From a virus (lineage: Duplodnaviria > Caudoviricetes): a stretch of DNA of 64,000 nucleotides. The stretch covers positions 7,716 to 71,715 of the IMG/VR virus record IMGVR_UViG_3300028906_000001. The stretch is one strand, 5' to 3'. Shown here piece after piece: positions 25,999 through 59,821 of this stretch. Numbering within the stretch: the first letter of the stretch is position 1; each line of letters starts with the position of its first letter. The notes beneath the pieces were generated by a model. The model was not told the origin of the DNA and searched no databases. It saw only the letters and a list, made by a program, of their open reading frames with translations. The translations under genes were made by a program, and so were the position numbers.

Positions 25999-26769
25999 CT
26001 ACTGAGCCGCGTGCCAGGTGTCGGTGAACGCCGTTCCCGCGCGGACCGGGCCGGGGGCCGTGAGCGTGACGCCGCCGCGGACCAGGTCGACCGGGTAGAC
26101 GGTCCACAGCCTGTTACTGGCCATGCCGCCGCGGATGCCGTTGCGGCTGGTGACGCGGATCGAGGTGAAGGTGCCGGTCCCGAAGTCGGCCAGCGGCAGG
26201 TTCGCGCCCGCGTTGGGTGCCTCCATGATGACCTCGGCGCTGGCGTTGTCGCACTGGATGTGCGCCGGGCATGGCTGGCTCGCGGCGATGGCCGTGCCGG
26301 TGGCGTGGTCCTCGAGCGCGAGCTGCCACCGGTTCGCCGCGGCGTCGTAGTAGACGCTGGCGGTGATCAGGTCGCCGGGGTTCACGCCGTAAGAGGTCCG
26401 GGCCGCGTTGTAAGCGACGACAGGGGCGTCCGGGTACATCTGGTACCAGGCGAAATAGCTGGGCTGCCCGTTCGTGCACACGCTGGCGGTGCCCACCTGC
26501 TCGACACTGCCGCTGGTCTCGCCGTCCAGGCCCACCCACGCTTCGGCCCACGCGACGGGCGGCGACTTCGCGCAGTCGACCGCCGGGAGTCTCCACGTCG
26601 CCGCGACGTAGCGGAACTTGCAGGTGACGCACGCCCCGGCGACGTACCCGGACCAGCTGGGGCTGCTCAGCGTCCGCTGAGCCCCGGCTGGCGCGGCGCC
26701 CGCGGATCCGCTGAGGGCCAGGGCGAGCAGGACAGCCGCGATGACGGCGCCGGACCGGGTGCGTTTCAC
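25999..26769 (-). CDS. Secreted G1-family (eqolisin) glutamic peptidase, antisense moron
   Basis: Signal peptide, SPSWSGY, AWVGLDG, EQVGT (catalytic Q), AWY..YP, V.PGD.I.ASV, SAEVIMEAP (catalytic E), LADFG...F. Confidence 0.88.
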   Translation of the reverse strand: MKRTRSGAVIAAVLLALALSGSAGAAPAGAQRTLSSPSWSGYVAGACVTCKFRYVAATWRLPAVDCAKSPPVAWAEAWVGLDGETSGSVEQVGTASVCTNGQPSYFAWYQMYPDAPVVAYNAARTSYGVNPGDLITASVYYDAAANRWQLALEDHATGTAIAASQPCPAHIQCDNASAEVIMEAPNAGANLPLADFGTGTFTSIRVTSRNGIRGGMASNRLWTVYPVDLVRGGVTLTAPGPVRAGTAFTDTWHAAQ

Positions 26770-26820
26770 CCGCCCATCGTCACACAACGGGAGACAGCAG
26801 GAGACAACGGGAGGTATCCG

Positions 26821-27339
26821 GTGCGCAAGGCGGTCATGATCCTGCTGGCCCTGCTGGCCATCCGGCTGCTGCCCAGGGCGCTGCGCCGGGAGGCCCGCGC
26901 GCTCGAACTGCTCACCCTGCTGTTCCAGATGACCGCCGCGGCCGCGACATCCAAGACGGTGGCCGTCGAGACGCGCACCGCCAACCTGGAACTCGCCACC
27001 CGCTCGGCAGCCGCCAAGGTCGCCGCCCAGAAAGGGCAGACCACCGCGTTCAGCAACCTGGCCCAGACCGAGACCGGGTCCGCGACGGTGTTCGGCGGGG
27101 AACCTACCATCCAGACCGGGACACCCCCGCAGACCGGCCAGTACACCGTGACGTCCAGCGGGCAGACCGGCGGCGCGGCGGCGCACACCCACACGGTCAC
27201 GCTGCCGTTCCTCAACCCGGACAACCACACCCACGGCTACGGGCACTCGCACTTCAACCAGGTCGCCGGCGACTTCAACAACCTCGTCGCGCAGCTCAAC
27301 ACGATGCGGTCCGCGCTGATCGGCGCCGGGCTCCTGTGA
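26821..27339 (+). CDS. Small fibre-like virion protein
   Basis: AHTHTV, NHTHG and GHSH HxH motifs. C-terminal DFNNLVAQLN.MRSALIGAGLL. Confidence 0.6.
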   Translation: MRKAVMILLALLAIRLLPRALRREARALELLTLLFQMTAAAATSKTVAVETRTANLELATRSAAAKVAAQKGQTTAFSNLAQTETGSATVFGGEPTIQTGTPPQTGQYTVTSSGQTGGAAAHTHTVTLPFLNPDNHTHGYGHSHFNQVAGDFNNLVAQLNTMRSALIGAGLL

Positions 27340-27349
27340 ACGGAGAATC

Positions 27350-27640
27350 ATGCTGATCAAGTGCAAGACCGGCGGCGAGATGATCGAGGTCGCCGAAGGC
27401 CAGGACCCGCACACGGCGCTCGACGCCACCGGGTGCTCCCACTGCCTGGACGGCCACGGGCCGGACGTGCACTGCGGGCAGACGGCTCAAGCCTGCTACC
27501 AGGCTCGCCTGGACGGGCAGCCGCTCCACGACGGGCCGTGCTGGAACCCGCCGGACGTCCCGGAGCGGCCAGACGGGTGCACCGTGTGCAGGCCGGTCCT
27601 GTTCATGGGCAACGCCACCTTCGTGAGCGGGGCGGTCTAG
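27350..27640 (+). CDS. Cys/His-rich hypothetical protein
   Basis: RBS ggag. CSHC, HC...C, C...CTVC. Confidence 0.6.
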   Translation: MLIKCKTGGEMIEVAEGQDPHTALDATGCSHCLDGHGPDVHCGQTAQACYQARLDGQPLHDGPCWNPPDVPERPDGCTVCRPVLFMGNATFVSGAV

Positions 27641-33916: not shown

Positions 33917-34406
33917 GCAGATGGCCTACTGGCTTGATCACGCCGGCGCCATGATCGGCCCGGCACCGCTTGACGACCCGACGGGCTGGGAGAAGTACGC
34001 CGACCGCACTCACCGAATCATGCGCCCGCAGCCCGGCCAGCTCGTCCAGGCGATCTCCTGGTGCGGCCGCCGGGTTCACGAGGTTCCCGGCCGCGGGCCC
34101 GTTGACTGCCGCGAATGTCTCCAGCTGATGGCCGAGGCGTTCGAGGACGCCTACGCCGCCCGGTCCAGGGTGACCGTCAAGCAGCTGCACGCGTGGGGCC
34201 GGTACGCCGAGCGGTGCGACTGCGGCGACGATTCCTGCGAGGGCTGGGCGATGGGCCATCAGCGGGAGGATGCGATCACCGAGGATCAGTTGCTGTCACG
34301 GTTGCGGTCACCCAACCCCATCGGTCGGGAGTCAGAAGGTCACGGCCCGGCGTTCCCGCTGGTGAGAGAAGCGCGCTCGGAGGGACTCGAACCCCCAACC
34401 TTCTGA
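33909..34406 (+). CDS. Hypothetical Cys-containing protein whose 3' end overlaps attP
   Basis: Coupled to int. WCG, CREC, CDC...C. Confidence 0.55.
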   Translation: MAEQMAYWLDHAGAMIGPAPLDDPTGWEKYADRTHRIMRPQPGQLVQAISWCGRRVHEVPGRGPVDCRECLQLMAEAFEDAYAARSRVTVKQLHAWGRYAERCDCGDDSCEGWAMGHQREDAITEDQLLSRLRSPNPIGRESEGHGPAFPLVREARSEGLEPPTF

Positions 34407-34530
34407 TCCGTAGTCGTAGGCAACGATGGACACGGACGGACCAGGCTGCCGTCAGCGCTGGTCACGGGCACTCCTGGCCGCCGTGGTCCGCTGGTGTCCG
34501 CGATCCCGGTTGCTGTCACGGTTGCGGTCA
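34289..34530 (+). repeat. Integrase arm-type sites: 22-bp direct repeat flanking the att core
   Basis: GTTGCTGTCACGGTTGCGGTCA at 34289-34310 and 34509-34530. Each copy is two GTTGC(T/G)GTCA units. Confidence 0.85.
34371..34415 (-). other. attP: attP common core = 3' half of tRNA-Arg(ACG)
   Basis: Minus strand reads GACTACGGATCAGAAGGTTGGGGGTTCGAGTCCCTCCGAGCGCGC (ACG anticodon loop, T-arm, acceptor 3' strand). No 5' tRNA half is present. Confidence 0.9.
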
Positions 34531-40590: not shown

Positions 40591-41112
40591 TCATGCGGCC
40601 GGCTCTCCTTCGGACGGCCCGGCGGACGCGCCGCGCCGGGCGCGGGATTCGGCGGCCTGCCTGCGGGCGGTCTCCTCCGGGCTCAGCAGGCGCTCCGGCG
40701 GCGGGAGGGCCGTGCCGAGCTGCTGGCGGAGGTCGTCGAGATCCGGCGGCGTCTCGCTCGGCAGCCGGCCGATGGCGAGGTGAGGCTGCTTGCCGTCCGC
40801 GATCTGCCTGACCTTCGCCTGGAGCGCGGCCTTGTAGCGGCCCGGCTCGTCGGTCAGTTCCGGTGGCGGCGCCGGGACGATCTCGCGGGCCAGCCGCTCG
40901 CGGCGCATGGCCTTGACGCGGGTCCGGATATGACCCGGCATAATCCGCTCGGTGCTCTCGCTGCCGTAATGGGCGGCGACGGCGGCCCTCGCGTCCGGAT
41001 ACGGAAGATCGCCGATGGCTTCCAGCCACGCAACGACGTCCGGGTCGCCGACCTTGCGGTTGTCGTAGAGGGCCGCGAAGGCGAGCAGCTCGCCGGTCTC
41101 GGCTGCGTTCAC
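40591..41112 (-). CDS. Replication accessory protein (helicase loader/inhibitor-like)
   Basis: LL...A.YDNRKV...V.AW...I.DL.Y.DA..AV..HY...IMPGHI. Coupled downstream of the initiator. Confidence 0.65.
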   Translation of the reverse strand: MNAAETGELLAFAALYDNRKVGDPDVVAWLEAIGDLPYPDARAAVAAHYGSESTERIMPGHIRTRVKAMRRERLAREIVPAPPPELTDEPGRYKAALQAKVRQIADGKQPHLAIGRLPSETPPDLDDLRQQLGTALPPPERLLSPEETARRQAAESRARRGASAGPSEGEPAA

Positions 41113-42026
41113 GATGCGTTCCTTCCGTCGATCATTGCCTGGACGCGGCGGCCGGCGTCGATAGCCGCCTGTGCGCGCTCAGCCCCGGTCGATTGCGACT
41201 GCCGCGGCGAGGCGCGTCCGCCCCCGTTCTGCGCTGCGCGATCACGTGCGGCGGCGTTCATGGCGGCGTTAACGAAGTCATCGAGGAGCGAGACGTTCTT
41301 CCCGGCTACGAACCAGTCGGCGAGGCCCTGGCGGATGTGCTTGTCGGGCTTTCTCTCGCCGACGAGTTTGCCGATCTGGGCGGCGAGCCTGCCGATCGTC
41401 CGCTCGGTCAGGTCGCCCCCGTTACCGCGTACCCAGTCGATGAAGTCGGCGAGGATGGTCTGCGGTGTCGGCACGGGCGCGTCAGCGACCGCAAGGTCTT
41501 CTGAGGGTTGTACTTCTGAGGGGATACTGAGGGGTAGCGAGACTGTTTCCGCAGGCAGCGGCGACGGGTCCGCACCCTTTATGGCCGATTCCGCACCCTT
41601 TCTCTCCGATTCCGCACCCTTTACCTCGGGTTTAGGGTGCGTTCTAGGCGCACCCTTTACCTCTGTTCCGGGTAGCGAGACTGTTTCCGCAGGCAGCGGC
41701 GACGGGTCCGCACCCTTTATGGCCGGTTTAGGGTGCGTGCTGGGCGCACCCTTTACAGGGGCATTCAGAGGCATCAGGATGAACCGCGCCGGACCGCTGC
41801 GATTGCCGCCGCCGTCCCGCTTCAGGACTCCCTCGGTGACGAGTTCGTCGGCGATGTGCGAGACGCGGCTAGGCGAGCGGCCGGTGCGATGCGAGAGGAC
41901 ATCGCGCGTCGGCCAGCCGGCCCGGGTCCCGTCGTTCGCCTTCTCGGCCCATGCGAGCAGCCACAGCTTGCGGGTGTCAGGCCCGCGGTAGTGGTCGAGC
42001 ACTTCGCAGACGAGCCTGATACCCAT
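41109..42026 (-). CDS. Phage replication initiator (N-terminal HTH, lambda O-like) with internal ori
   Basis: KLWLLAWAEKAND...WP.RDVLS.RTG...L...GVL. Internal KGA repeats. Confidence 0.8.
   Translation of the reverse strand: MGIRLVCEVLDHYRGPDTRKLWLLAWAEKANDGTRAGWPTRDVLSHRTGRSPSRVSHIADELVTEGVLKRDGGGNRSGPARFILMPLNAPVKGAPSTHPKPAIKGADPSPLPAETVSLPGTEVKGAPRTHPKPEVKGAESERKGAESAIKGADPSPLPAETVSLPLSIPSEVQPSEDLAVADAPVPTPQTILADFIDWVRGNGGDLTERTIGRLAAQIGKLVGERKPDKHIRQGLADWFVAGKNVSLLDDFVNAAMNAAARDRAAQNGGGRASPRQSQSTGAERAQAAIDAGRRVQAMIDGRNAS
41532..41754. repeat. Iteron cluster / putative origin of replication
   Basis: CGCACCCTTT at 41571, 41592, 41613, 41649, 41709 and 41745. 56-bp perfect duplication at 41532-41587 / 41670-41725. 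Confidence 0.8.
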
Positions 42027-42133
42027 AACGTCGCCCCGCCAGCCTGCGCGAGGCGCGCGCCATGACGAGACCGCGAACGAGTCCAGACGCAGCCCATGAC
42101 GCTGATGGCCACTCAGGAGGCCTGCCCTTCCGC

Positions 42134-43858
42134 TCATGACTCCTGACATGCAGTTCGCCGACCACCCGGATAGCGGCCTTCCGGCCGCCCGGTACACCAC
42201 CCGTGGAATCCGGCCTGGGCCGCGCTGAGCTCAGCCCTGGCTCCCGCCGGAGGTCCGGCGCCGCTCACCACAGCACCGCCCCGGACCAGGCCAGCACCAC
42301 CGCGGCCAGCCCCGCGGCGACGGCGGCCAGGATGGCCCACGACGCCCGCGAGCAGCCAGGCGAGCAGCCACAGGCAGACGGCGAGGAGCGGCCAGGTCAC
42401 GTCCGGCTCCCCTCGGCGGCGTGTTTCCAGCCGCGGCAGATGCCGATGAAGGCCCGCATCTCGCCTTCGCTGAGCGGTTCCCCGTCGTCCGGCCGCCCGG
42501 GGATCCGCCGCATGACCCGGGCGGCCGCACAGCGGGCATGGCGGAGCGGGTGCCGGGCGGTGCGCGCGAGCAGGACGGCGGCGATGGCGAGGAGCGTGAC
42601 GGCGACGGTCACCCGGACGGCGATGGCCCGCCGCAGGTGCGCGGTCACGGCGTGACGTCCTGTCCGTCGCGGCCCAGGTACCACCCGGCCTGCCAGCACG
42701 CGGACACGAGGATCTGCGCGAGTTCCTCGACCCGGTACGGGCTGAGCGTCACCGCCTCATCCGTGCCGAGGATCCGGTCCCAGGAGACCAGGTGCACGAG
42801 GCCTTGCGGCCCGGGCGCCTGCTCGGCGACGCGCACGCCGTCCGCGGTGACGCTCTCGACCTGGCCGCGATGTGGTTCGGTGACGCCGGCGTGCACCGGC
42901 CGGTAGGTGATCAGGTCCCCGGGGCGGAGCGTCCGCAGGGTCACCGTGTCGTAGGCGACGCCGACGATGACGACGCGGCCTTCGTCGTCTTCAACGCGGC
43001 CGATCTCGCGGACGTGCAGGCCGTCAGCCATGGATGACTCCTAGCCGCTCGCGCCACCTGGCGATCTGGACCTGGCCGACGCGGGCGCGGTGCCCGTCGC
43101 TGGTCTTGATAAAGCTGGACAGCATGTCGCAGGCCAGGGCCTTCAGGTGATCGATCGCGGCGCGCTGCCCGGCGACGTGCGCTATGTGCTGGGCCTCGGT
43201 CTGCCACCAGATGCGGGCATCGGCGTCCCAGTGGCTGGCGGCAGGGTCGTCGTCGTGCGGCCACAGGTTGCAGGCCAGGTCCGCCCAGTCGTTCGCGACG
43301 GATCCTTTGCAGCCGGATGAAACGTGCTGACGGTCAGCCATCACACATCACCCGGTGCCCGGCGGCGCTCGTCAGGTACCCGCACGCCCGGCACCGCGTG
43401 GCCGCCGTAACGGGGGGGGGCGCGGCCAGCGGGACCGGCTCAGGCGGCGCGTTGAGCGTGTCCTGCGCCGCGTGGTACCGGTCGCGCGCCGACTCCAGGT
43501 CGGCCAGCTCCCCGTCGTCCGGCACCAGCGCGAGCGAGAGCGGCGGCGCGGGGGGCGGCACCCGGACCGGGGGCGTGGTCGCGGCAGGCGTCAGGCCGCG
43601 CAGGTCGTCCGCGTCCTCGGCGGCCCGTTCCCGGTACCACTCGGGAGACGGGCCGATGTCCGGCGCGTTCTCCTCGTGGTACGCGATCCGGCGCCGCACT
43701 TCCTCCAGGTAGCCGGTGACCCCGCGGTAGGCGTCCTCGCCGCCGCCCTTGTAGACGTACGGCTTGAACGGCCGGGCATCGCTGGCGCGGGCCATCGCGG
43801 ACCGGCCGTCCTGCGGCCTGTCGGCCCAGCGTGCCGGGATGCCGGCGTCAGTCATCGC
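42134..43858 (-). CDS. Small early ORFs (42134..42400 region, 42397..~42590, 42645..43031, 43024..43344, 43334..~43858)
   Basis: Coupled minus-strand ORFs of unknown function. Confidence 0.5.
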
Positions 43859-49667: not shown

Positions 49668-49901
49668 TCAGGGCGTCGCGGGCGTGCGCCTTACCTCCGC
49701 GAGAAACCGGCCCCAGGTGGATCCGGGAAACGTCAGCACCGGGCCGTCCGGGTCCTTGCTGTCACGGACGGCGACCCCGTGGGTGCAGGTCCCGGCCTCG
49801 GCGCAGTTCGTGCCGTTGCTGTGCGCGCTCTTCCGCCAGCTCGCCACCTCGGCGCAGTCGCCGTTGCTGAAGCTGTGCGAGCTCTTGCGCCAGTCGATCA
49901 T
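49668..49901 (-). CDS. DUF397 protein (tandem WRKS motif)
   Basis: WRKSSHS..GDCAEVA / WRKSAHS..NCAE, VAVRDSKDPDGPVLTF...W..F. Confidence 0.92.
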   Translation of the reverse strand: MIDWRKSSHSFSNGDCAEVASWRKSAHSNGTNCAEAGTCTHGVAVRDSKDPDGPVLTFPGSTWGRFLAEVRRTPATP

Positions 49902-50755
49902 GCCGTGATCTCTCCCTCTCGCAGATCAGCCGCCGCGGCCGTGATCAGCCGCCGCGCCTCGTTCCCGGTGACCGCCTCGGCCAGCAGCTCCCCGAAGATG
50001 CGCTCGTAGGCGGCCGACTCCCGGCCGGGGATCGTGTCGGCTGAGGTGAAAGTCTCCACGACGGTCAGGTCATCGACCGTCAGGAAGCCGACCATCGGAG
50101 CCACGGGCAGCTCGGTCCCGGCCGGGATGATCCCCAGCGTGACGTTCCCGAGCGTAGATGCGACCAGGAGCCGGTCGAGCTGGCCGAGCATCACCGGGCG
50201 CGGGCACAGCAGCAGCCGGAACGCAGTCTCGGTGATGACGAACTCGAACGTCTTGGCCGCGTCGTAGAGCACTTCCTGGCGGCGCACCTGCGCGGCCACG
50301 GTCTCTTCCACGCCGCTCCCGGCGGTGCCGTGCAGCCGCACCGCCTCAAGCGCGCGGTACCGGGCGTAGTCAGGCGTCTGGAGCAGCCCGGGGATCAGCA
50401 GCACCTCGAAGTTGCGGATGCGCTTGGCTCCGCGTACGAGAGCGTCGAACTCGGCCTTCAGCGCGGCGTGGCCGGCGCGGAGCTGGTGGCGCCACTGCCG
50501 GTGGACAGCCTGCGCGTCGCTGAGCAGCTCGAGCAGTTCCGGGATGGCCTCGGGGCGGCCGGCCGCTTGCGCCCAAGCTGTCACGTCGGCGTCGGTGGGC
50601 ATCTGGCGGCCGTTCTCGATCTTGGGGACCTTGGACCGCGGCCAGCCGAGCAGCGCAGCGAGCCGGTCACCAGTAAGCCCGGCGCCCTTCCGCAGGCGCT
50701 GCAAGCGCTCCGCGAGGCCGCCGGGCTGGTTCAGCCATTCTCCAGTCGGTCGCAA
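49898..50755 (-). CDS. XRE HTH + DUF5753 regulator (WhiJ/Scr1-like)
   Basis: L..LR...GLTG..LA..LGW..SKV.KIENG, IPGLLQTPDYAR, RQEVL, EFVI.E..., QLDRL, VE.F. Confidence 0.9.
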   Translation of the reverse strand: MRPTGEWLNQPGGLAERLQRLRKGAGLTGDRLAALLGWPRSKVPKIENGRQMPTDADVTAWAQAAGRPEAIPELLELLSDAQAVHRQWRHQLRAGHAALKAEFDALVRGAKRIRNFEVLLIPGLLQTPDYARYRALEAVRLHGTAGSGVEETVAAQVRRQEVLYDAAKTFEFVITETAFRLLLCPRPVMLGQLDRLLVASTLGNVTLGIIPAGTELPVAPMVGFLTVDDLTVVETFTSADTIPGRESAAYERIFGELLAEAVTGNEARRLITAAAADLREGEITA

Positions 50756-50768
50756 GGCAGTTCCTCGG

Positions 50769-51302
50769 TCAGGCGGCGGCGATCTCTTCCGCCGGGGCGG
50801 CGTTGCGGACTGCCAGGTCCCGCCATTCCCGCGCCCAGGTGACGGCGCCCGGATCGGTGATCAGTGATTTCCCGCCGAGTTCGCCGCCGCCGTCGTACCA
50901 CATCCTGATGACGCGCTCGTCGTCGAGCAGCCACCAGTCGCTGCCGAGCGGCAGGCCGATCTCCTCGGCGCGGCTGCGGCGCAGGTAGCTGATCTGCTCA
51001 CCTGCGCGTGCATGCCACGGGAGCGCCCACAGCCCCCACCGCTGGTAGTCGCTGGGCGGCTCGGAGATGACGCGCACCCGGATGACGTGCTTGCCCTGCC
51101 TCGTCAGCGCGGCGACCTGGTCGAGCCACGGACGCCACCAGCTGATCTCCGGCGGGGGCGCCGGCGAGCCTGCCCGGAACCGCTCGAAGTCGGCGGCCTC
51201 GTAGCCGAGCGCGTACGTCTCCTGGGCCTCGAAGTAGAACGCGGTGCTGCGGAACGACCGCAGCAGTTCCGCGAACTCGTCATCGCTGACCGGGACAGCC
51301 AT
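50769..51302 (-). CDS. DUF6879 protein
   Basis: F...FR.TAF..E.Q..Y, W..WL..V...G....RVRV..EP..DY.RW, GE.I.YL.R..A, DWWLLDD. Confidence 0.85.
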   Translation of the reverse strand: MAVPVSDDEFAELLRSFRSTAFYFEAQETYALGYEAADFERFRAGSPAPPPEISWWRPWLDQVAALTRQGKHVIRVRVISEPPSDYQRWGLWALPWHARAGEQISYLRRSRAEEIGLPLGSDWWLLDDERVIRMWYDGGGELGGKSLITDPGAVTWAREWRDLAVRNAAPAEEIAAA

Positions 51303-51502
51303 CAGGCGAGGTCCCGGATGCGGTCGATGACGTCGGCCGGCACGAACACCCCGTCCTCGTCGGTGCCGAGGTCGCGGAGCTGGGTTCGGGTCTCGGTGTC
51401 GAGCCGCTTGCCCTGGATGACGTAGCCGCCTTCGGCGCGGTACATGGCCGGGCAGTTGCCGACGTTCGATCCGCCGGTCTTCCACATGAACCTGATCTCC
51501 AC
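51302..51502 (-). CDS. Small conserved protein upstream of DUF6879
   Basis: GNCPAMY...GYVIQG...E..V.VP..VI. Coupled. Confidence 0.7.
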   Translation of the reverse strand: MEIRFMWKTGGSNVGNCPAMYRAEGGYVIQGKRLDTETRTQLRDLGTDEDGVFVPADVIDRIRDLA

Positions 51503-51704
51503 TTGCTGGACTCCCTTCGTGAGCCTGGTTCCGTTCCCGATTGTTCTCTATTGGTGGCCGCCGCGTCCAGCCTGCGGCGGCCACCCGGAACCTGGCCACT
51601 CCAGCATAGACGGTTGCCGAACGTTCTTGACTGTTCGCCGTAACGTGGCTTACCGTGGGCGCGGAGAGTTTCACTTGATCGGATCGGACGGCCAGGGAGC
51701 CCCC

Positions 51705-51971
51705 TTGAGCGAGATGAGCCCGGCAGCGACAGGCGGTGCGGACCTGATGTCCGTGACCGAAGCGGCGGCTAAGCTGCGCCTGTCGCGGATGACGGTCCTG
51801 CGCCGCCTCAAGAGCGAGTCCTGGCCGGGCGGAAGGTCTGGCCGCAAGTACCTGCTCAACAGCGCGTTCGTGAACGCTCTCGCCGCCGAGTACGGCAGCC
51901 GCCCGAACGTCGTCGCTGAGGATTTCGCCGCCGAGTGGATGGCCCGCAGCGCTGCCGGGGCGGTCGCGTAG
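51705..51971 (+). CDS. Excisionase-like HTH DNA-binding protein
   Basis: LMSVTEAAAKLRLSRMTVLRRL...PG.R.GRKYL. Confidence 0.72.
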   Translation: MSEMSPAATGGADLMSVTEAAAKLRLSRMTVLRRLKSESWPGGRSGRKYLLNSAFVNALAAEYGSRPNVVAEDFAAEWMARSAAGAVA

Positions 51972-52208
51972 ATGGCCTCCAAGCTGACCGCCCGCCAGTT
52001 CCTGGCCCTCGGTTACCTCGACGCCCACGGCCCGGTCACCGCCGGGGATCTCCCGATGGCCCGCGACACGGCCCGCGCGGTCCTGGCCGGCCTCGCCCGC
52101 AAGGGCTTCGCCGCCGAGGGCGCGCACGGCTCGTACGCGATCACCGACGCGGGGCGCCCGGCCCTGGCCGCCGCCCGCGAGGAAGCCCGGCGCGAGGCAG
52201 GCACCTGA
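51972..52208 (+). CDS. Small winged-HTH (MarR-like) protein
   Basis: LTARQ..AL.YL...GPVT...L...LARKG...Y.ITDAGR. Confidence 0.65.
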   Translation: MASKLTARQFLALGYLDAHGPVTAGDLPMARDTARAVLAGLARKGFAAEGAHGSYAITDAGRPALAAAREEARREAGT

Positions 52209-52779
52209 TGAACCGCACCCCGCAAAACGAGAACGGCCCCGCCGCCCGCGGAGCCGTCCTCACTACCTGTCTCGTCCCGCCGTCCCGCCAGGAAAGGCAT
52301 CCGAGTGACGACCGACCTAGCACAAGCCGCAGACACCGCCGCAGACCGCCCGCTGCGGCCACCGGACGTGACCGCCGAGTGGGCCGCGCTGCTGGAAGCC
52401 GAGGCCGCCAGGCGCGGCCTGCCGCCCGAGCCCTGGCCGCTGCCGTAAGCCGCGCCGGGCACGCGGGCGGTCTTCCCCTCCGCCCGCGTGCCCGGCGCAG
52501 TCAGGGACGCACTTCGGTGCGCGGCCCGTTCCGGCCCGCCGGGCGCGCGATGAGCCTGAACTCGCGCCACCGGGACGGCTGCCACTTCGCGGCGGTCAGC
52601 CAGTCGCGGAGCTGGCCCTGCAGCCACGCCGCGTTGCCGGGGTCGCCGGTGGCCTGGAACGTGCCGCCGTCGACGTGGCGGGACCCGTGCATGACCTCGA
52701 GGTCGAGCGGCCGGGCGGGCATCGCGGTCTCCTTCCCTGGCGGTTGCTCCCATCGTAAGCACGGGCCGGCGATCTGACC

Positions 52780-53785
52780 ATGCCGCAGCACGGGGCCCGC
52801 GCGAACCGCAACGCCGGCCACAGGACGCGGCGGGCGCGGCTGCTCGCGTCCGCCCAGGGCGACGATAAGCGCCTGGCCGCCGCGTACGACTGGTTCCGCT
52901 CGTCCGCCGGGCTGCTTTCGCGTCGCCGGCCGCCGTACGGGACTGACCGGAAGGTTCACCAGGAGGCCGCCGCGCGGCTCACGCGCGAGGCCGCCGGGTA
53001 CCTGCAGAGGTTCGCCGAGGCGATCGACCGCGGTGATTACGACGCCCGGAAGGGGTGACGCGCTGTGACATCCGTGGATGAGGCAGAGAAGGAAGGCAGT
53101 CCGGCCGCCGGGACGGCTGCCCCGGAGTCCAATGCGCAGTCGCGCGCATGCGCGCGGGAGGATACGCCCGCGCCTGCCTCCGTTGCGCTTCAGGCGGTCA
53201 CGGACAGTGCGCAAGCTGTGCGCCGTACTTTCGCGCAGGGCGTGAAGTCCCTGGACCGCCCCGGCACCCTGGCCGACGCCCAGCCGCCCACGTTCCGGCA
53301 GGCGCGGGACTACCACCACCGCTGCGCCGGCCACTTCAACGCGCTGCTGTTCTCGGTGCCCCGGATCGTGTGGGGCTACCTGCACATGGCCGTCGTCAAG
53401 CCCGTCCTGAACCTGGCCGAGTGGGTCACCGAGTCCCCGCTGCGGTGCGCGGTCGCGCTGGCCGTCTACTACGCCGTCCGGCACTGGGGATAGTCCGTTG
53501 CTAACCAGAAAGGCGGCGTGAACAATGAGCGAACCCTGGAACCTGACTGAGGCACAGCGGCGGCAGATCCGCGAGGCTCACGCCGAGGCGAAGCTTGCCG
53601 GTGCACCCAAGCTCGCGACCCAGTACGGCATCCGCTGGCCCACCGGTTCCGTCTTCTGCTTCGGCTCACGGGAACTCGCAGAGGCCGCACTGGGCGAAGA
53701 CCCCCGGCGCGCCGGGGTCCTCGTCGTGCACGAGATCGAGCCCGGTACCCCGAACGCCACCGAGTGGCGGGAAGTCGAGGACTGA
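52780..53785 (+). CDS. Three hypothetical proteins (52780..53058, 53065..53493, 53525..53785)
   Basis: Co-oriented, with RBS. 53065 has a C-terminal hydrophobic segment. Confidence 0.6.
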
Positions 53786-53788
53786 GCC

Positions 53789-54208
53789 GTGTTCATCACC
53801 GTCTCCGAGCTGTGCGTGCTGTTCCTGCTGTTCTGGGGCCTGTTCCACTGGCTGGGGATTTTCGCGAAGACCCGCGTGCTGCTGGCGCTGCTCGGCGTCC
53901 TGGGCATCGGCGGGTTCCTCGGCCGCGCCCTGGTCTGGGCGGCGACCTGGCTGCAGCACGTAACCGGCTCGATCACCGGGTGGGTGTTCGGCACGGCGGT
54001 CCCGGCGGCGCTGTTCCTGGTGCTGGCGGCGCTGCTGATCCACGACATGCACCCGCGTAACGGCGCCACGCGCCGGACCGGCTACCTGGCGTTCGCGGTC
54101 GGCGCGTTCCTGGTCGCCGGCGTGGCGGGCATCCCGGCACTGTCCCCCGTCGCCGGTTTCCTCCGGTCGCTGCTGGCGACCCTGACCACCTGGCTCAACT
54201 CGCTCTAG
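53789..54208 (+). CDS. 4-TM membrane protein (Spd-like, inferred)
   Basis: Four hydrophobic helices. Upstream of the traB-like gene. Confidence 0.7.
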   Translation: MFITVSELCVLFLLFWGLFHWLGIFAKTRVLLALLGVLGIGGFLGRALVWAATWLQHVTGSITGWVFGTAVPAALFLVLAALLIHDMHPRNGATRRTGYLAFAVGAFLVAGVAGIPALSPVAGFLRSLLATLTTWLNSL

Positions 54209-54218
54209 GCGGCAACTC

Positions 54219-55193
54219 ATGGAAGCACTGATCCTGATCATCATCGTCGGCTGGCTCGTCAAGCAGGGTGTCGAGGACGGTCACCTGCACTGGCAGTCGT
54301 CGAAGGCCGCGAACCGCCGGCGCACAGCCGGGCAGCGAGCCGGCCGCCGTGCCGCGTCGGCGATCCAGCATGACGCCGGGTACTGGGCCCACCAGGTCCT
54401 GAACGGCTTCCCGCAGACCCGCCACGGCATCGCGGCCGGCTGGCACGCCGGGCGGACCGCCCAGGCGCAGGGCACCGCGGACCGGCAGAAAGCCAGGGCG
54501 GAGCACCTGTCGCTGCGCGCCCGGCTGGCACCGGAGATCCGCGAGCACCTGCGCCGCCAGGACGAGGCGCTCGCCGCGATCCGCGCGGCGCAGCAGCCGG
54601 ATCCGGAGTACCTGGAACCGGAACCGCAGCCGAGCCGCCGGGTCGACGGCAAGCCTGAGACTCCCGCTGACGCGCGGTTCTTCGGCGCCCGCGAGTCCGG
54701 CTACAACGGCTGGATCGACCGGGACGGCTACCCGGTCCCGGCAGCCGGCGAGCCCGTAACAAGCAGTCCCCCGGACGACGTCGAGATTGAGATGGCGCTC
54801 TACAGGGACGACCAGGACAGGGCGCGCAGACGCGCGAACACGACAACGGAAGGAACCGCCATGCCCGCATCAGGCGACACCACCTACACCCAGCAGCTCT
54901 CCGAGTTCACCGCGATCCGCGACGACGCCGAGGAGGAGCTGAACAGCGTGCGGCGCAAGCGGATGCTGAACCGCCTGGACATCCTGTCCGGCCTCGGCCT
55001 GGACAAGGACTCGCTGGGCGACGCCGCCGCGATCGATGACGCGCTGCGCGAGCAGCAGAAGGCCGCGCAGAACACCCTCGACGCGTCCGACAACGCGATC
55101 GCGGGCCTCAAGACCCGCCACGGCGGCATCAAGCAAGCCGCAGATGAGGCACCGGTCGATCGCATCGCCGACCCGGCGTTCTACGAGGACTGA
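54219..55193 (+). CDS. TraA-like protein (inferred) with a probable in-frame internal start at 54861
   Basis: N-terminal TM. C-terminal L..RHGGI.QA.D.AP...A.P.FY. RBS GGAAGGA before the ATG at 54861. Confidence 0.6.
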   Translation: MEALILIIIVGWLVKQGVEDGHLHWQSSKAANRRRTAGQRAGRRAASAIQHDAGYWAHQVLNGFPQTRHGIAAGWHAGRTAQAQGTADRQKARAEHLSLRARLAPEIREHLRRQDEALAAIRAAQQPDPEYLEPEPQPSRRVDGKPETPADARFFGARESGYNGWIDRDGYPVPAAGEPVTSSPPDDVEIEMALYRDDQDRARRRANTTTEGTAMPASGDTTYTQQLSEFTAIRDDAEEELNSVRRKRMLNRLDILSGLGLDKDSLGDAAAIDDALREQQKAAQNTLDASDNAIAGLKTRHGGIKQAADEAPVDRIADPAFYED

Positions 55194-55199
55194 CCAGCC

Positions 55200-57182
55200 A
55201 TGACGCCGCGCCGCCAGAGGCGGGAGGTTCCGCGCTGGCGGCGCGGCACGCAGCAGCAGCACGGGGGCGTGCAGCTGACCGGCCGCCACGCCAGGGCCTT
55301 CGCCCGCGAGTACGCCCGCGAGACCGCCCGCCAGTCCGCGGCCAGCACCGCTAACGACACGCTGGCCAGGACCGGCGGGTGGCGGTTCCGGAACCACGTC
55401 GCCCCGTTTGCGTGGCTGGCGTTCCTGGTCCTGGCCGCGGCCGGGCTGCGCCGGACCGCGCACCCGCTGCCGTACAGCCTCCCGGCCGGCTTCGCCGCCG
55501 GCTTCCTGGCCGTGTGGGCGACCCGGCACCTGTCCGCGTACGCCCGCCGCGCCGCCGACCTGGGCGCGCTGCTCACCGCTGCCTGGCTGCCGGTCCTGGC
55601 CGCCGAGGGGTTCAGGAAGCCGTGGCCCGCGGTCCTGGCCGCGACCTGGGCGCTCTGCGCCGGCCTGTGGATCCGCCACTACCGCTGGCGCCCGCACGCT
55701 GTCGCAGACGTCACGGTCCCGGTCAGCGACGACACTGACGAGGCCCGGTGGAAGGCGCTGGCCGCTGAGCACCGGTGGAAAGGCGTCCTCGGCCCCGCCG
55801 AGCAGCTGGACGGCGGCGGCCGCCGCTACCCAGTCCAGCTGGACGGCATCAAGACCACCATCGGCACCGTCCTGGCCGCGAGCGAGAACATCGCCGGCGC
55901 GTGGCACAAGCCCATGACCGAGGCGTACGCCGAACGTGACCCGCTCGGCATCACCTCCCGCGGTTACCTGACGATCCTCGGCCGCGAGTCCCTGATGAGG
56001 GTCCGCGAGTGGTCCGGCGCGGGCATGGACCCGGCGACGGGACTGGCGGTCATCGGCCGGTACGCCGACGGCTCCGACACGCGCGTCAAGCTCTACACGC
56101 CGAGGTTCGGCACCCGGCACGCCCTGATCAGCGGCACGACAGGCTCAGGCAAGAGCGAGCTGCTGAACCTGCTGATCTTCATCGCGCTGGTGACGGCCGG
56201 ATGGTTCGTTCCCGTCGTCCTGGACCCGCAGGAGGGCCAGTCGCTGCCGTTCTGGCGGGACCGGTGCCTGTACGCCGCGGGCACCGACGAATGCCACCGG
56301 ATGATCCGGGGCCTGCACGCCGGGATGCTGGGCCGGTCCCGTTACATGGCCGGGCTGCGCTGGGACGACGACGGGATCGCGATGCGCGGCATGCCGTTCT
56401 TCGACCGGGAGCTGACCGGCCTGCCGATGCCGCTGATCATCTTCGACGAGGCGCACATGGCCCTCAAGGGCGCGACGAAAGGCGAACGGCAGATCGTGTC
56501 GGACACGGTGGAGATCGCCCGGCTGTCCCGCAAGACCGGCGCGGGGCTGTGGCTGGCCACGCACATCCCCGGCCTGACCGACCTGGGCGGCGAGCAGGCG
56601 CTCCGCGACATGCTCCGCGGCGGCAACGTCGTGTCGATGCGGACCGCGAACCGGGTGGGCGGCCCGATGCTGGGCCTGGAGAAGGACCCCAGCGAGATCC
56701 CCCGGTTCTTCGCCGACGGGAAGGAAACCTACGGGCTGGGTTACGCGGCGGGCCCGGACAACCGCCCGGACGCCCCGATGCGCTCGGACCTGGTCCCGAA
56801 GGCGATGCGACGCCGCGTGCCCGCGGTGCCGGTGCTGGACGACCGGTTCCTGGAGGACATGGACCGCGCGATGGGCGGCCAGGGCGTGCCGGTCCCCTCC
56901 TCCGCGCCGGACCCTCCCGCTGATGACGCGCCGGAGGGCCGCCGCTGCGCCGACGCGGTGTGGCAGGTGCTGGCGGACTCGGGGAAGCCGATGGAGCGCG
57001 GGGAGGTCATCAAGTGGGTGAACGAGCTGGTCACGACCGGCTGGGGCCGGGAGAAGCCGTTCAGCATCCGGTCGGTCACCGACGCCCTGGCGAAGCTCAC
57101 CGCCGGCGACGGCGGCCGTGTCATCACCAAGGTCCGCGACGGCGTGTACCAGGCGCCGCAGGACGAAAGCGAAAGGAACTGA
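55200..57182 (+). CDS. traB: TraB-like FtsK/SpoIIIE conjugative DNA translocase
   Basis: N-terminal TM helices, Walker A GTTGSGKS (56133-56156), Walker B LIIFDEAH (56433-), ARLSRKTG..LWLATH, C-terminal winged helix. Confidence 0.82.
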   Translation: MTPRRQRREVPRWRRGTQQQHGGVQLTGRHARAFAREYARETARQSAASTANDTLARTGGWRFRNHVAPFAWLAFLVLAAAGLRRTAHPLPYSLPAGFAAGFLAVWATRHLSAYARRAADLGALLTAAWLPVLAAEGFRKPWPAVLAATWALCAGLWIRHYRWRPHAVADVTVPVSDDTDEARWKALAAEHRWKGVLGPAEQLDGGGRRYPVQLDGIKTTIGTVLAASENIAGAWHKPMTEAYAERDPLGITSRGYLTILGRESLMRVREWSGAGMDPATGLAVIGRYADGSDTRVKLYTPRFGTRHALISGTTGSGKSELLNLLIFIALVTAGWFVPVVLDPQEGQSLPFWRDRCLYAAGTDECHRMIRGLHAGMLGRSRYMAGLRWDDDGIAMRGMPFFDRELTGLPMPLIIFDEAHMALKGATKGERQIVSDTVEIARLSRKTGAGLWLATHIPGLTDLGGEQALRDMLRGGNVVSMRTANRVGGPMLGLEKDPSEIPRFFADGKETYGLGYAAGPDNRPDAPMRSDLVPKAMRRRVPAVPVLDDRFLEDMDRAMGGQGVPVPSSAPDPPADDAPEGRRCADAVWQVLADSGKPMERGEVIKWVNELVTTGWGREKPFSIRSVTDALAKLTAGDGGRVITKVRDGVYQAPQDESERN

Positions 57183-57183
57183 T

Positions 57184-57499
57184 CATGATGCAACCAGTCG
57201 CGACCCTCCCCGAAGCGGCCGCTCTGGCCGATGCGGACCGCGCCGCGATCCTGCGCTACGCCACCTGGCTGCTGCCTGTCCGCGACCGGGCCGACCCGGA
57301 GGTAGTTACCCGCGCTGCCGCCCCGCTGCTCAGGTGGGCGCAGGATGCCGTTAGCAAAGACGACCTGCGCGCCCGCATGGCGGCGATGTCGCGGGAGCAT
57401 GACAACTCATCCCCGGTGGTCACCGAGCCTGTCGATCCGGAGGGGTTCCTCACCCGGGCCCGCGTCTACTACGAGTTCATCACCGGCGTCACCCGATGA
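57184..57499 (+). CDS. Hypothetical protein
   Basis: RBS aaagga. Coupled between traB and the DUF2637 gene. Confidence 0.55.
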
Positions 57500-58164
57500 C
57501 CAGCGACAGCATCGCCGTCCGCGCGGTCAGCGCCTGCTACGCGCTCATGGCCGCGGTGACCGTCATCGCGACCGCCGTGGGGTTCTGGCTGTCCTACGCC
57601 GGGCTGCACTCCTTCGCGGCCCGTGCCGGGCTGTCGGGCCCGGAGGCGTGGGCATGGCCGTCCAGCGTGGACCTGTTCATTCTCGCAGGCGAGCTCGGCA
57701 TCACCATCTCGGTGCTGCGGGATGGCAAGACGGACTGGCGGGCGTGGATGTACTTCGCCGCCGGCGCGGGCCCGTCGGTCGGCTTCAACGTCCTGCATGT
57801 GACGGTGACCGCTCCGGGCTGGGGCAAGTACGCAGTGGCGGCCACTCCCCCGGTCGCTGCGGTGCTGGCGCTGGCGGCGCTGATGCAGCAGGTGCTGAGC
57901 CTCGACGCGGCGCTGGCGCACCTGCACGGCCGCGCGGACAATCCCGGACGGTCCCGGACGCATGACGAAACCGCGCCGAGCGACGCCGAAACCGCGGCGC
58001 TGGCCTCGCTGCGGGTCACGCTCGCGGCCGGGAACCCGTGGTCGCTGAACCAGCTCCGGGAACGGTTTTCGCTGACCCGTACGCAAGCGACGAGAGTGCG
58101 CCAACTGGTCCTGGCCGCCGCCAACGGGCACGATAGCGGCAACGACGCAGGAGGCACGACATGA
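57496..58164 (+). CDS. DUF2637 (SpdA-like) membrane protein with a C-terminal HTH
   Basis: GFWLSYAGL..FA...G......W.WP..VD..I...EL, S...NV.H, P.VA...L, L.ERF......A.R. Confidence 0.8.
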   Translation: MTSDSIAVRAVSACYALMAAVTVIATAVGFWLSYAGLHSFAARAGLSGPEAWAWPSSVDLFILAGELGITISVLRDGKTDWRAWMYFAAGAGPSVGFNVLHVTVTAPGWGKYAVAATPPVAAVLALAALMQQVLSLDAALAHLHGRADNPGRSRTHDETAPSDAETAALASLRVTLAAGNPWSLNQLRERFSLTRTQATRVRQLVLAAANGHDSGNDAGGTT

Positions 58165-59821
58165 GCGAGACCGCCCGGGCCAACCGCGACGGCCACCCGT
58201 GCCCGCCCTGGTGCACCGCCGACCATGACCAGGAGCTGCTCCCCGGCAGCTTCAGCACCGCGCACAGTTCTGAGGGCGCGCATGCCGCCGGGGCGACTGT
58301 CACCGCAGTTCTCTTCCCCTCCGTCCGCGAACCGGAAGTCCAGGTCTGCACCCCCGGCGTGGACGGCGGCTCCATCTTCCTGCCTGCTCGCGAGGCCGGG
58401 TACCTGGCCGTCCTGATCAGGGAGCTCGCCGGCGCCGCCCCCGAAGAGCATCGCGAGCTGGCCGCCGCGATCCGCCGGGCCGCCGCGCAGATCACGGAGG
58501 CCGGCGATGGCTGACGCGGGGAACCTGACCGCCAGCGACGTCGAGGCGATGCTGGCCGAGGCCGGGGTGGACTGCTCGGCGCTGGAGATCCGCGACGACC
58601 CCAAGGTGTGGCGGGACGCGGCAACGGGCCGCGAGTTCACGTCCGTGGTGATCAGCGGGCCGGAGGAACCGCGCCGCGCGGCCTTTTGCGCGCTGCTCGC
58701 CCTCGGCCTGAGCGTCGCCCCGTACCCCGATCATGACGAGTGGTCGCGGTGAGCGCCCTGGAGCAGCGCCGCCGCACCGTCCGTGTGCTGGAGCTGCTGA
58801 GCGAGTCGTTCGAGGCGCACCAGCGCGGCGACGACGAATCGTTCCATGCCATCCTGGACACCGCGATGGAGTGCGACGGTCTCGCTTTCGCGGGTATCCG
58901 GATCGGCATCACCATCGGGGAGATCCCGAACCCTGAGCGGGACTGGCCGGCGTGGGCGGAGTACGTGACTGCTGCCAGGGAAGCGCTGACGGCGGCGGAA
59001 GCGGAGGCCGGTCGTGGTGACTGAGCCTCAGCCCGCCCCCCAGGACCGCGCCGACCAAGCCGCCAAGGACCTGATGACCGCTATCACCGAGATGGCCGTG
59101 CCAGGGGACAGCGAGATCGTGGTGCTCCTGCGCGGCCATGTCGAAGGTATTCCGGGCCGGGAACCCCCGGACGCCGACCTGTTCTACTCGTGGGAGTGGT
59201 TCTGCCGGCCGGAGGACCGGTCAGGGCTAGACGTCGCGCCGGGGGCGGACGGCCATGGTCACATCCGAGGGAGCGGCGATGAGCCCGGTACCACGTGACG
59301 TGATGAGCGCCGAGGTGCGCGCAGCCATCGAGCGTCACGACGAGTGGGATGCGATGCACGAGTTCGTCACCCTGCACTGGGACGGCGAGCACCTGAGTTA
59401 CGGCACGGTCGGCATCATCGACCCGGCCTTTCACCCGACCCAGTACGGCAAGCTGATGGCCCGGCTGGCGGCCGAGCAGATCGGCAGGGAGCCGGGTAAG
59501 CCGCCGTACGCCTACCTGCTCCAGATCGAGGGTTTCGGCGTGCCTGAGCCGCCGCCCAGCGCGACCGACGAGGAGCGCGCCCAGTTTAACCGTGACCGGA
59601 TCGGCCGCACCTTCCACCAGCGCGCCGACGCTCACGAGTTCGCCCAGGCATGGTGCGCTGACATCCACGGCCGGCTCTGGTCCGCCACGAAGCGGCGCGA
59701 CCGGCCTGACGATATCCAGGTCAAGTTCTACCGGCCCGGCGCCGCTCCGTCTGGCCAGATGATCGAGGCCCTGCTCGCCGTCGCTGCCGCCACGGGTTCA
59801 CTGCAAGCGGGCGCGAACTAG
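58161..59821 (+). CDS. Coupled small ORFs: 58161..58514 (CPPWC..DH, DUF6907-like), 58507..58752, 58749..59024, 59014..59298, ~59276..59821
   Basis: Head-to-tail overlaps continuing the traB operon. Confidence 0.6.

Follow-up and report, generated by a model that had tools for sequence, protein, structure and literature searches.

Introduction

Plasmids such as pSVH1 and pIJ101, which have a TraB or Tra protein along with Spd proteins, rely on one pump protein that combines a single FtsK-like motor, a membrane part, and, at the C-terminus, a winged helix, and genes for small membrane proteins lie directly upstream of the pump gene and are co-transcribed with it (PMC4447253). For example, the gene order in pSVH1 is spdB3-spd79-spdB2-orf108-traB (Thoma et al. 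2015, PMC4447253). The integrative and conjugative elements of actinomycetes (AICEs), such as pSAM2, SLP1, and pMEA300, join a Tra-type pump to an integrase, a tRNA site, and an excisionase-type helix-turn-helix (HTH) protein; they do not have virion genes, they replicate by RepSA-, RepAM-, or Prim-Pol-type systems, and they are regulated by GntR or Nudix proteins (te Poele et al. 2008, PMC2440964). Here we describe a tra-like module in the genome of an uncultured tailed phage. The DNA that we analyzed, which we will call the window, is 64,000 nucleotides long and corresponds to bases 7716-71715 of the 71,715-bp IMG/VR virus record IMGVR_UViG_3300028906_000001, a metagenome assembly. At the center of the module is a 660-amino-acid protein, p660 (P0001). 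Its architecture, predicted fold, and position in a tree support its identification as a translocase of the Tra/TraB type.

The module resembles those of pSVH1 and pIJ101: its pump likewise unites a membrane part, one FtsK-like motor, and a winged helix at the C-terminus, and the pump gene is preceded by genes for small membrane proteins in what appears to be one transcript. But we did not detect a GntR-type TraR/KorA regulator, a clt site, or any homology to Spd or KilB proteins, and the window's element encodes virion genes. The phage shares with AICEs the integrase, the tRNA site, the excisionase-type HTH protein, and the Tra-type pump. Unlike AICEs, it has a lambda-O-like replicon, a cI-type switch, and full virion and lysis modules.

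Tailed actinophages and plasmid-phages with a Tra-type pump for double-stranded DNA (dsDNA) are a known kind of element, and the window's phage is a further member. One precedent is pZL12 (PhiZL12), a Streptomyces plasmid-phage that Zhong and colleagues reportedly described in 2010 (J Bacteriol 192:3747) as having a transfer locus; pFP4, reportedly from Chen and colleagues in 2012 (Plasmid 68:170), is cited alongside it. We take pZL12.71c to be the TraA of that locus. In the sequence of pZL12 (GQ919031), one circular molecule carries tailed-virion genes and an FtsK-like Tra (pZL12.71c) with its adjacent genes, and by our annotation the window's phage likewise has tailed-virion genes and a Tra-type gene on one circle. 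However, pZL12 has ParAB and a GntR regulator and is kept as a plasmid, while in the window's phage we found neither, and it appears to integrate by Int and attP. The window's phage also uses another subfamily of Tra, with a defined set of conserved partners.

A closer relative is PhiNon1, a plasmid-phage element of Nonomuraea gerenzanensis ATCC 39727 (D'Argenio et al. 2016, PMC5431353). Polymerase chain reaction showed that PhiNon1 exists as a circle as well as integrated at a tRNA-Val gene, and it was described as self-replicating with about 17 copies; the article does not mention a tra-like module (PMC5431353). Like the window's phage, PhiNon1 (plasmid III, NZ_LT559120.1, 59,257 bp) has the genome of a tailed phage. 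It encodes a capsid, a portal, a terminase, and a tail tube, and its host belongs to the Streptosporangiaceae. It has a module of the same subfamily, with a DUF2637 protein, small proteins, a 396-amino-acid protein at the position of our p324, and a 654-amino-acid pump. This pump shares 33% identity with P0001, and our tree places it close to the P0001 family. On the other hand, its structural genes and its attachment site (tRNA-Val) differ from those of the window's phage, and its accessory proteins are too diverged for BLAST.

We propose that the module helps to carry the DNA of its own element from one compartment or cell to another. We put the probability of this at roughly 0.55. The broader idea, that widespread temperate actinophages (at least five uncultured lineages and PhiNon1) have two routes, AICE-like pumping of dsDNA by a TraB-type module as well as virions, is tentative, and we consider it somewhat doubtful.

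Results

The pump groups with the Tra proteins of plasmids

In an AlphaFold2 (AF2) model with a predicted local distance difference test score (pLDDT) of 85, p660 has a basic N-terminus, four helices, a motor, a disordered linker, and a winged helix. The N-terminal helices are at residues 60-84, 89-107, 113-136, and 142-161, with the hydropathy peak at 65-83. The motor has a Walker A motif (GTTGSGKS, 312-319) and a Walker B motif (DE, 416-417), and the residues of both do not vary among 29 homologues with identities of 45-77%. The winged helix (583-651) is modeled with pLDDT above 90, with helices at 583-594, 600-614, and 623-634 and a beta hairpin at 643-651; the fold is present in the model and looks to be of the DNA-binding type. 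In Tra of pIJ101, a winged helix of the MarR type occupies the corresponding position. Also, p660 matches PF01935 and PF01580 in Pfam, and the Pfam matches of pIJ101 Tra are the same weak mix: FtsK_SpoIIIE, DUF87, and, at the C-terminus, the MarR-type winged helix. The Walker A motif begins at residue 312 of 660 in p660 and at 317 of 648 in pIJ101 Tra; it is at around 300-320 in Tra proteins and at around 506 in chromosomal FtsK.

When we compared the model to known structures with Foldseek, the motor domains of FtsK bound to dsDNA ranked first (E 4e-13, target TM-score 0.62), followed by TcpA, which is a conjugation coupling protein, and then by EccC/EssC and HerA. Could the ATPase instead drive the export of the neighboring small proteins, as EccC does in type VII secretion systems? 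The ATPase domains of EccC and EssC are among the Foldseek and NCBIfam matches, and the protein upstream of a related pump on the Micromonospora plasmid pVMKU has a faint match to WXG100 (E 0.009). But EccC and EssC have multiple ATPase domains, whereas p660 has just one, and it was "ATPases 2 and 3" of EccC/EssC that Foldseek matched. FtsK and TcpA rank above EccC, and the predicted winged helix at the C-terminus would suit DNA rather than protein. We consider protein export very unlikely.

The profile of the 29 homologues aligns to pIJ101 Tra with hhalign across 254 colinear columns (87.5% probability), while only the 144-column core of the P-loop domain aligns to a plasmid-borne FtsK. The best NCBIfam family for p660 is plasmid_TraB (NF041214), at 37.5 bits. 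In the ESM Atlas, one cluster that neighbors P0001 (0.97) is labeled "putative plasmid transfer protein TraB," and viral members make up 65% of another cluster, a neighbor by structure. The family of P0001 has 329 cluster representatives at E ≤ 1e-30.

We also built a maximum-likelihood tree of 29 ATPase cores, with support from the Shimodaira-Hasegawa-like approximate likelihood ratio test (SH-aLRT). A long branch with 100% support splits chromosomal FtsK from a Tra clade that contains pIJ101 Tra, pZL12 TraA, chromosomal proteins that resemble the TraB model, the plasmid homologues, PhiNon1, and a monophyletic P0001 family; because the branches are long, we read nothing more from this tree than the separation of FtsK from the Tra group. 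A first-pass annotation, which was made by a model from the letters and the open reading frames (ORFs) alone, had described p660 as an FtsK/TraB translocase with transmembrane (TM) helices, an ATPase, and a winged helix, and the AF2 model, Foldseek, hhalign, and the tree all bear this out. It had also raised the prospect that the pump might group with non-conjugative FtsK proteins. In our tree, the pump sits with the plasmid proteins (pIJ101, pZL12) and apart from the non-conjugative FtsK of chromosomes.

A set of conserved genes accompanies the pump

Six genes travel together, as judged by tblastn: p92, p142, p139, p324, p660, and the gene for the DUF2637 protein (P0003) (Table 1). They are found in four further uncultured phages (G001-G004) and on three other contigs (L005, L047, L048). 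The small protein p86 has no tblastn match in the relatives examined, and neither do the four ORFs at 58507-59821, which are not conserved with the module; p104 overlaps the start or stop codons of both of its neighbors.

The gene for the DUF2637 protein adjoins the pump gene or heads its module in 5 of 5 phage genomes, and it is in the same region on PhiNon1 and on two Streptomyces plasmids. Isolated phages of Streptomyces also encode DUF2637 proteins, among them OnionKnight, Dubu, and phiSASD1. The motifs of p324 (P0002) come from an alignment (A2) of 8 homologues. Both of its ends can be aligned with a 291-amino-acid protein in the homologous module of the Streptomyces plasmid NZ_CP108855; tblastn of P0002 against plasmids gave no match, and the shared termini are seen only pairwise with the syntenic plasmid gene. 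When we compared all of the module's proteins by BLASTP to the 66-amino-acid ORF of pIJ101, to 70c and 72c-76c of pZL12, and to the neighbors of the pump on PhiNon1 and the plasmids, only p324 matched.

The first-pass annotation called the combination of phage and conjugation genes a candidate hybrid. The module is not a one-off: it is a conserved part of the backbone in at least five distinct uncultured phages (the window's phage and G001-G004) and in PhiNon1, and pZL12 is an older precedent. These phages do not all have the same virion genes: G003 and G004 have capsid genes that are homologous to those of the window's phage, G002 has only tail and lysis genes in common with it, G001 (105.7 kb, with terminal repeats) has its own portal, and PhiNon1 differs as described above. 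Because the structural genes differ, we conclude that the module occurs with different virion modules. In contrast to these uncultured phages, none of 50,697 records of cultured phages matched by tblastn of P0001 or by megablast of the module, so at this sensitivity isolated phages lack the P0001 subfamily; the collection includes pZL12, which is too diverged to be matched.

Outside of phages, the nearest relatives that we found are on linear plasmids of the Streptomycetaceae, so the label "AICE-type" in the first-pass annotation was imprecise. With tblastn of the pump's motor, we found 136 plasmid records, and 122 of these are from Streptomyces. Three linear plasmids from Streptomyces and Kitasatospora (NZ_CP108855, NZ_CP108210, and NZ_CP109321) have the same gene set in the same order. 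Each encodes a pump homologue of 695-707 amino acids (30-42% identical to P0001 over the motor) within a co-oriented row of genes for small proteins, and beside it a protein of 291-414 amino acids; in two of the three, this p324-like protein shares its N-terminus and/or C-terminus with p324. They differ from the window's phage in that the DUF2637 protein is large (about 577 amino acids) and is encoded upstream, which is the case for 2 of the 3. Of the four plasmids that we checked, these three have no candidate for the TraB model other than the pump homologue. We did not find any transfer test of these linear-plasmid modules in the literature. As an aside, on the Micromonospora plasmid pVMKU (L050, 6197-10705), a 643-amino-acid pump of the P0001 type adjoins a true FtsK paralogue (822 amino acids, 369 bits to the FtsK model), so this plasmid has two ATPases of the FtsK superfamily in one operon.

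Among the matches in genome collections, the only credible host labels are from metagenome-assembled genomes (MAGs) of Streptosporangiaceae, which include L047 and L048; a further short matching contig is in a MAG that is labeled Terracidiphilus. Of 301 genomes of Streptosporangiaceae, 27 match the pump's profile, about eight of them over its full length, and tblastn identified chromosomal pump homologues in the genomes G274, G025, and G305. The host of the window's phage is probably a mycelial soil actinomycete from this family.

In a mycelial host, the pump might work only within one mycelium. Like FtsK or SffA, it could clear or distribute the phage's replicating or excised DNA across septa as they close or into the compartments of spores, with no transfer to other individuals. 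It has the FtsK fold, according to Foldseek, and work cited by Thoma et al. (PMC4447253) describes TraB-type proteins as derived from septal segregators of chromosomes. An SsgA-type cell-division gene lies beside the module of PhiNon1, and our tblastn searches with ParA and ParB of pZL12 did not find ParAB in the phage. However, the pump is with plasmid Tra in the tree, apart from chromosomal FtsK, and the same module is found on plasmids, where pumps of the Tra type serve transfer. A role within the mycelium also overlaps with the spreading half of our proposal, and the two are hard to tell apart by sequence. Overall, we think that a purely intramycelial role is improbable, although it is the most serious alternative to transfer of the element's DNA between compartments or cells.

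The module probably has its own promoter region

We confirmed the genes of this region by a frame analysis of GC content at third codon positions (GC3) and by independent gene calls from JGI and ENA contigs. Every gene that the first-pass annotation named exists at or near the coordinates that it gave, including the protein with the CPPWC..DH motif, which belongs to DUF6907. It placed all of these genes in a single co-oriented operon. The rightward genes are there, but a hairpin at 52452-52498 and a 73-amino-acid gene on the reverse strand split the Xis-like and MarR-like genes from the module. The hairpin, which follows a possible small ORF beyond the MarR-like gene, is likely to be a bidirectional terminator that ends the Xis/MarR transcript. 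Because the hairpin and the reverse gene intervene, the module is probably its own transcription unit, with its own divergent promoter region and outside of the Xis operon. Its first gene starts 57 bp beyond the 73-amino-acid gene, at 52780, and the module extends to 58164.

The 73-amino-acid protein is a candidate for the regulator of the module. It is 68% identical to the product of a 78-amino-acid gene at the same place in a related contig (L116), whose pump is 54% identical. We suggest a regulator because it is better conserved than the pump and because its gene and the module's first gene always point away from each other. In another relative (L115, encoding the pump P0101 on a 155-kb contig), a divergent GntR gene precedes the tra-like operon, which resembles the kil-kor arrangement of plasmids. 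Just upstream of that GntR gene (L115:1336-3887) are a flavohaemoglobin-like gene (Globin and NAD_binding_1) and a nitric-oxide synthase gene (PF02898).

If the module has its own promoter region, separated by a hairpin from the early transcript, then it might be expressed in lysogens, like a moron. This would fit with a device for defense or exclusion, in which the membrane ATPase and its partners block or expel the DNA of incoming phages or plasmids. ATPases of the HerA/FtsK type are known from defense systems, and one of these, SIR2-HerA, is among the weaker Foldseek matches. We think that defense is unlikely: the family scans (which did not include PADLOC) did not find a nuclease, SIR2, or any other effector in the module, the best structural and profile matches are to FtsK and Tra and not to the HerA of defense systems, and the predicted winged helix and membrane anchor suit a DNA pump.

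An integrating temperate phage with its own replicon

The ends of the record share an exact overlap of 127 bp, which implies a circular genome of about 71.6 kb, and CheckV estimates its completeness at 100%. Because the genome has virion and lysis genes, Int and attP, an O-like initiator, and a cI-like gene (Table 1), we take it to be a complete temperate phage that integrates and that has a replicon of its own. The signs of integration are Int and attP. The setting that the first-pass annotation described, with genes for a capsid, a tail, lysis, an integrase, and a cI-like repressor, was thus right, except that we would say just "tailed" instead of "siphovirus." The rightward genes that include the module continue into the terminase region, which is at the record's beginning. 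It was also right that the module seems to depend on the phage's own int/attP and iteron replicon: there is one attP and the whole genome has a single PF00589 integrase and no second one, and the initiator has its own iterons. Specifically, there are 5-6 copies of GCACCCTTTA within the initiator's coding sequence (41569-41750), three of them in 21-bp tandem, and this region is the probable origin of the phage. We considered a replication role for the module and ruled it out, as the lambda-O-like initiator with its iterons sits in the other arm. No RepSA-type gene turned up in the genome, although we did not search with the RepSA models themselves. Similarly, tblastn with ParA and ParB of pZL12 gave no match at E ≤ 1; profile searches for ParA and ParB were not made.

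Is the junction between phage genes and tra-like genes real? The record is a metagenome assembly, and an overlap of 127 bp between the ends is typical of what assemblers produce from a circular path, so one might worry that these genes were joined by mistake. But in other samples, at least three more contigs encode the identical 660-amino-acid protein, with matching neighbors to its left and right and the same gene order into the terminase region: JGI 3300006176 (71,668 bp), in which the circle is opened at a different point, ENA ERZ27256640 (71,729 bp), and JGI 3300053216 (124,963 bp). Also, the related phage G003 (50,982 bp, with terminal repeats), whose integrase is 84% identical, is laid out in the same way. 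We conclude that the contig is no chimera, and the chance that an assembly error explains the arrangement is negligible. The contig JGI 3300053216 exceeds the circle by 53 kb; it could be either a prophage with host flanks or a concatemer.

If the junction is real, the module could still be passenger DNA that was taken from a plasmid by recombination and that has no role in the life cycle of the phage. Homologous modules are on plasmids, and the upstream border is marked by the hairpin and the divergent gene. However, the module is at the same genomic position in G003, it is also in phages whose structural modules are unrelated, and its catalytic residues are invariant. Furthermore, GC content is 70-73% across the window, with no compositional break at the module. 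A passenger without function is, in our view, an unlikely explanation.

Table 1. Features of the window's phage, with positions in the window
Feature	Position	Strand	Basis
Prohead protease, HK97-type capsid, tail proteins, lysin	rightward genes		family matches
ORF of tape-measure size, 1315 aa	rightward		no family match
Tyrosine integrase, the only one in the genome	32585..33916	+	PF00589
attP	34289..34530		reverse complement of tRNA-Arg(ACG) 3' half, flanked by two identical copies of a 22-bp repeat (gttgctgtcacggttgcggtca) at 34289 and 34508; read directly
Lambda-O-like replication initiator	41109..42200	-	phrog_8064, 270, 391; leftward arm
RecT and PDDEXK exonuclease	leftward arm		family matches
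XRE-DUF5753 repressor candidate at the cI position	49898..50755	-	PF13560, PF19054
DUF397 and DUF6879 neighbors of the XRE-DUF5753 gene			PF04149 (DUF397), PF21806 (DUF6879)
Excisionase-family HTH (Xis- or Cro-like), first gene of rightward early transcript	51675..51971	+	TIGR01764 "excise" 29.7 bits, cut-off 28.8; PF12728 HTH_17 weak; phrog_1840
78-aa protein, possible MarR-like winged helix	51972..52208	+	PF12802 MarR_2 weak, E 0.0088; GC3 0.94
GC-rich hairpin, 19-bp stem	52452..52498	.	minimum free energy -50.5 kcal/mol, z -6.25; as good a fold in 0 of 200 shuffles
73-aa protein, divergent from module	52501..52722	-	GC3 = 1.0 in frame; called in JGI and ENA contigs; no Pfam family
p92, first gene of module	52780..53058	+	tblastn homologues at same place in G003, G004, L047; no family match
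p142, hydrophobic C-terminal part	53065..53493	+	homologues in G001, G002, G003, G004, L005, L047
p86	53525..53785	+	called in independent contigs; no family match
p139, 4-TM protein	53789..54208	+	hydropathy, 4 segments; homologues in G001-G004, L047
p324 (P0002)	54219..55193	+	TM/coiled-coil protein, N-terminal TM helix; conserved GYW..GFP..RHG..AGW motif; helical C-terminal part ending RHGG..APV..FY
p660 (P0001), candidate Tra/TraB-type dsDNA translocase	55200..57182	+	DUF87, HerA_C, FtsK_SpoIIIE matches
p104	57185..57499	+	called in independent contigs; no family match
DUF2637 membrane protein (P0003), 3-4 TM helices	57496..58164	+	PF10935 E 2e-11; phrog_733
DUF6907 protein with CPPWC..DH motif	58161..58514	+	PF21848 30.9 bits, cut-off 26; motif in translation
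Four small co-oriented ORFs (81, 94, 94, 188 aa)	58507..59821	+	gene calls; no family matches

We made a few other observations about the genome. First, a cassette of XRE-DUF5753 and DUF6879 genes (here with DUF397) adjoins the tra-like module both in the window (49668-51502, reverse strand) and in L116 (3381-5014), and in the Streptosporangiaceae genome G305, near 4,310,600-4,312,400, an XRE-DUF5753 gene and a DUF397-like ORF lie a few kb from the pump homologue. This pairing may not be accidental. Second, the large terminase might be in two pieces or shorter than usual. The sole match to TerL_ATPase (22.6 bits, under the cut-off) is a 312-amino-acid ORF upstream of the window, at 2888-3826 of the record; a separate 190-amino-acid ORF comes after it, at 3868-4440, and G003 has homologues of both. 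Third, a 476-amino-acid ORF with a Peptidase_A4 (eqolisin) domain (E 2.5e-27) is directly after the tail genes, at 25999-27429 of the window on the reverse strand. Fourth, a nucleotidyltransferase of the RlaP family (PF10127, E 1.5e-30) is encoded within the block of head genes (3789-4586, reverse strand) and has a homologue in G002.

Discussion

How might the module move DNA? By analogy with TraB, the pump would assemble in the membrane, its winged helix would load onto a site in the circular phage DNA, and the motor would drive dsDNA, unprocessed, across the wall of the hypha or across the cross-walls of septa. The 4-TM protein p139, p324, p142, and the DUF2637 protein could be partners that form the pore, anchor the pump, or aid in spreading, as Spd proteins do for TraB. 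The phage's Int and its Xis-like HTH protein would excise the element, and the O-like initiator would replicate the circle. The module could be under separate control, by its own divergent promoter region and the conserved 73-amino-acid gene. Because the phage has its own means of excision and replication as well as a pump, the excised and replicated circle could reach neighboring compartments or hyphae without virions. We infer the translocation of DNA, as well as its substrate, the pump's partners, and the timing, from what is described for plasmids, and virion-independent transfer by the same analogy.

Several results weigh against this proposal. First, p660 scores far under the cut-off of NF041214 (37.5 vs. 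800 bits), so it does not reach the curated equivalog. However, pZL12.71c scores just 20 bits against the plasmid_TraB model, so we think that the model is narrow and that low scores are normal for the diverse Tra group. None of the four plasmids or five Streptosporangiaceae genomes that we checked has a match to NF041214 over its cut-off. Second, P0001 reaches pIJ101 Tra only at the level of profiles, and BLASTP found no detectable similarity between P0001 and pZL12 TraA. The long branches of the tree also leave the order within the Tra clade unsure. Third, we scanned the genome, as well as the flanks of the pump in five phages, for clusters of k-mers that might be a clt site, and did not find a convincing one. 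The only local cluster of repeats near the pump is of GGCGCTGGC (4-5 copies, 57855-58011), which is within the DUF2637 gene, encodes repeated Ala-Ala-Leu-Ala, and is not common to the relatives. We also considered a cluster of GGCCAGGACC at 55364-55634, and we rejected it: the word is common across the genome and the cluster sits in the region that encodes the TM helices of the pump, so we take it to be driven by coding. Fourth, tblastn with the GntR proteins of pIJ101 and pZL12 found no GntR-type TraR/KorA in the genome. Fifth, the accessory proteins have no similarity that BLASTP could detect to SpdA, SpdB, or KilB of pIJ101 or to 72c or 73c of pZL12. This leaves the labels "TraA-like" and "DUF2637 = Spd," which the first-pass annotation had used, unproven; the second is also unsupported by Pfam, as Pfam does not put SpdB of pIJ101 in DUF2637. 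Finally, we did not find any transfer experiment for this subfamily in the literature, whether for a phage or for a plasmid.

The value of these findings is tempered by the precedents, namely pZL12 (2010) and the suggestion of Thoma et al. (2015). Their main value is that they define a module and point to a test system that can be cultured. The module has seven conserved parts (p92, p142, the 4-TM protein, p324, the pump, the DUF2637 protein, and the divergent 73-amino-acid gene), and its accessory proteins do not belong to any known family. Because Nonomuraea gerenzanensis ATCC 39727 can be cultured and its PhiNon1 has a module of the same subfamily, it provides an experimental handle.

If the pump works as it does in plasmids, then phages of mycelial actinomycetes would have a second route of spread that needs neither a receptor nor lysis. 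Such a route would escape the limits that virions place on host range, as well as many defenses at the cell surface. It would also blur the line between prophages and AICEs, and it would bear on estimates of gene flow in the actinomycetes that produce antibiotics. And if the dual route is true, then these would be true phage-conjugative elements, entities with a dual lifestyle, and part of what is counted as the spread of "prophages" in mycelial actinomycetes would be independent of virions.

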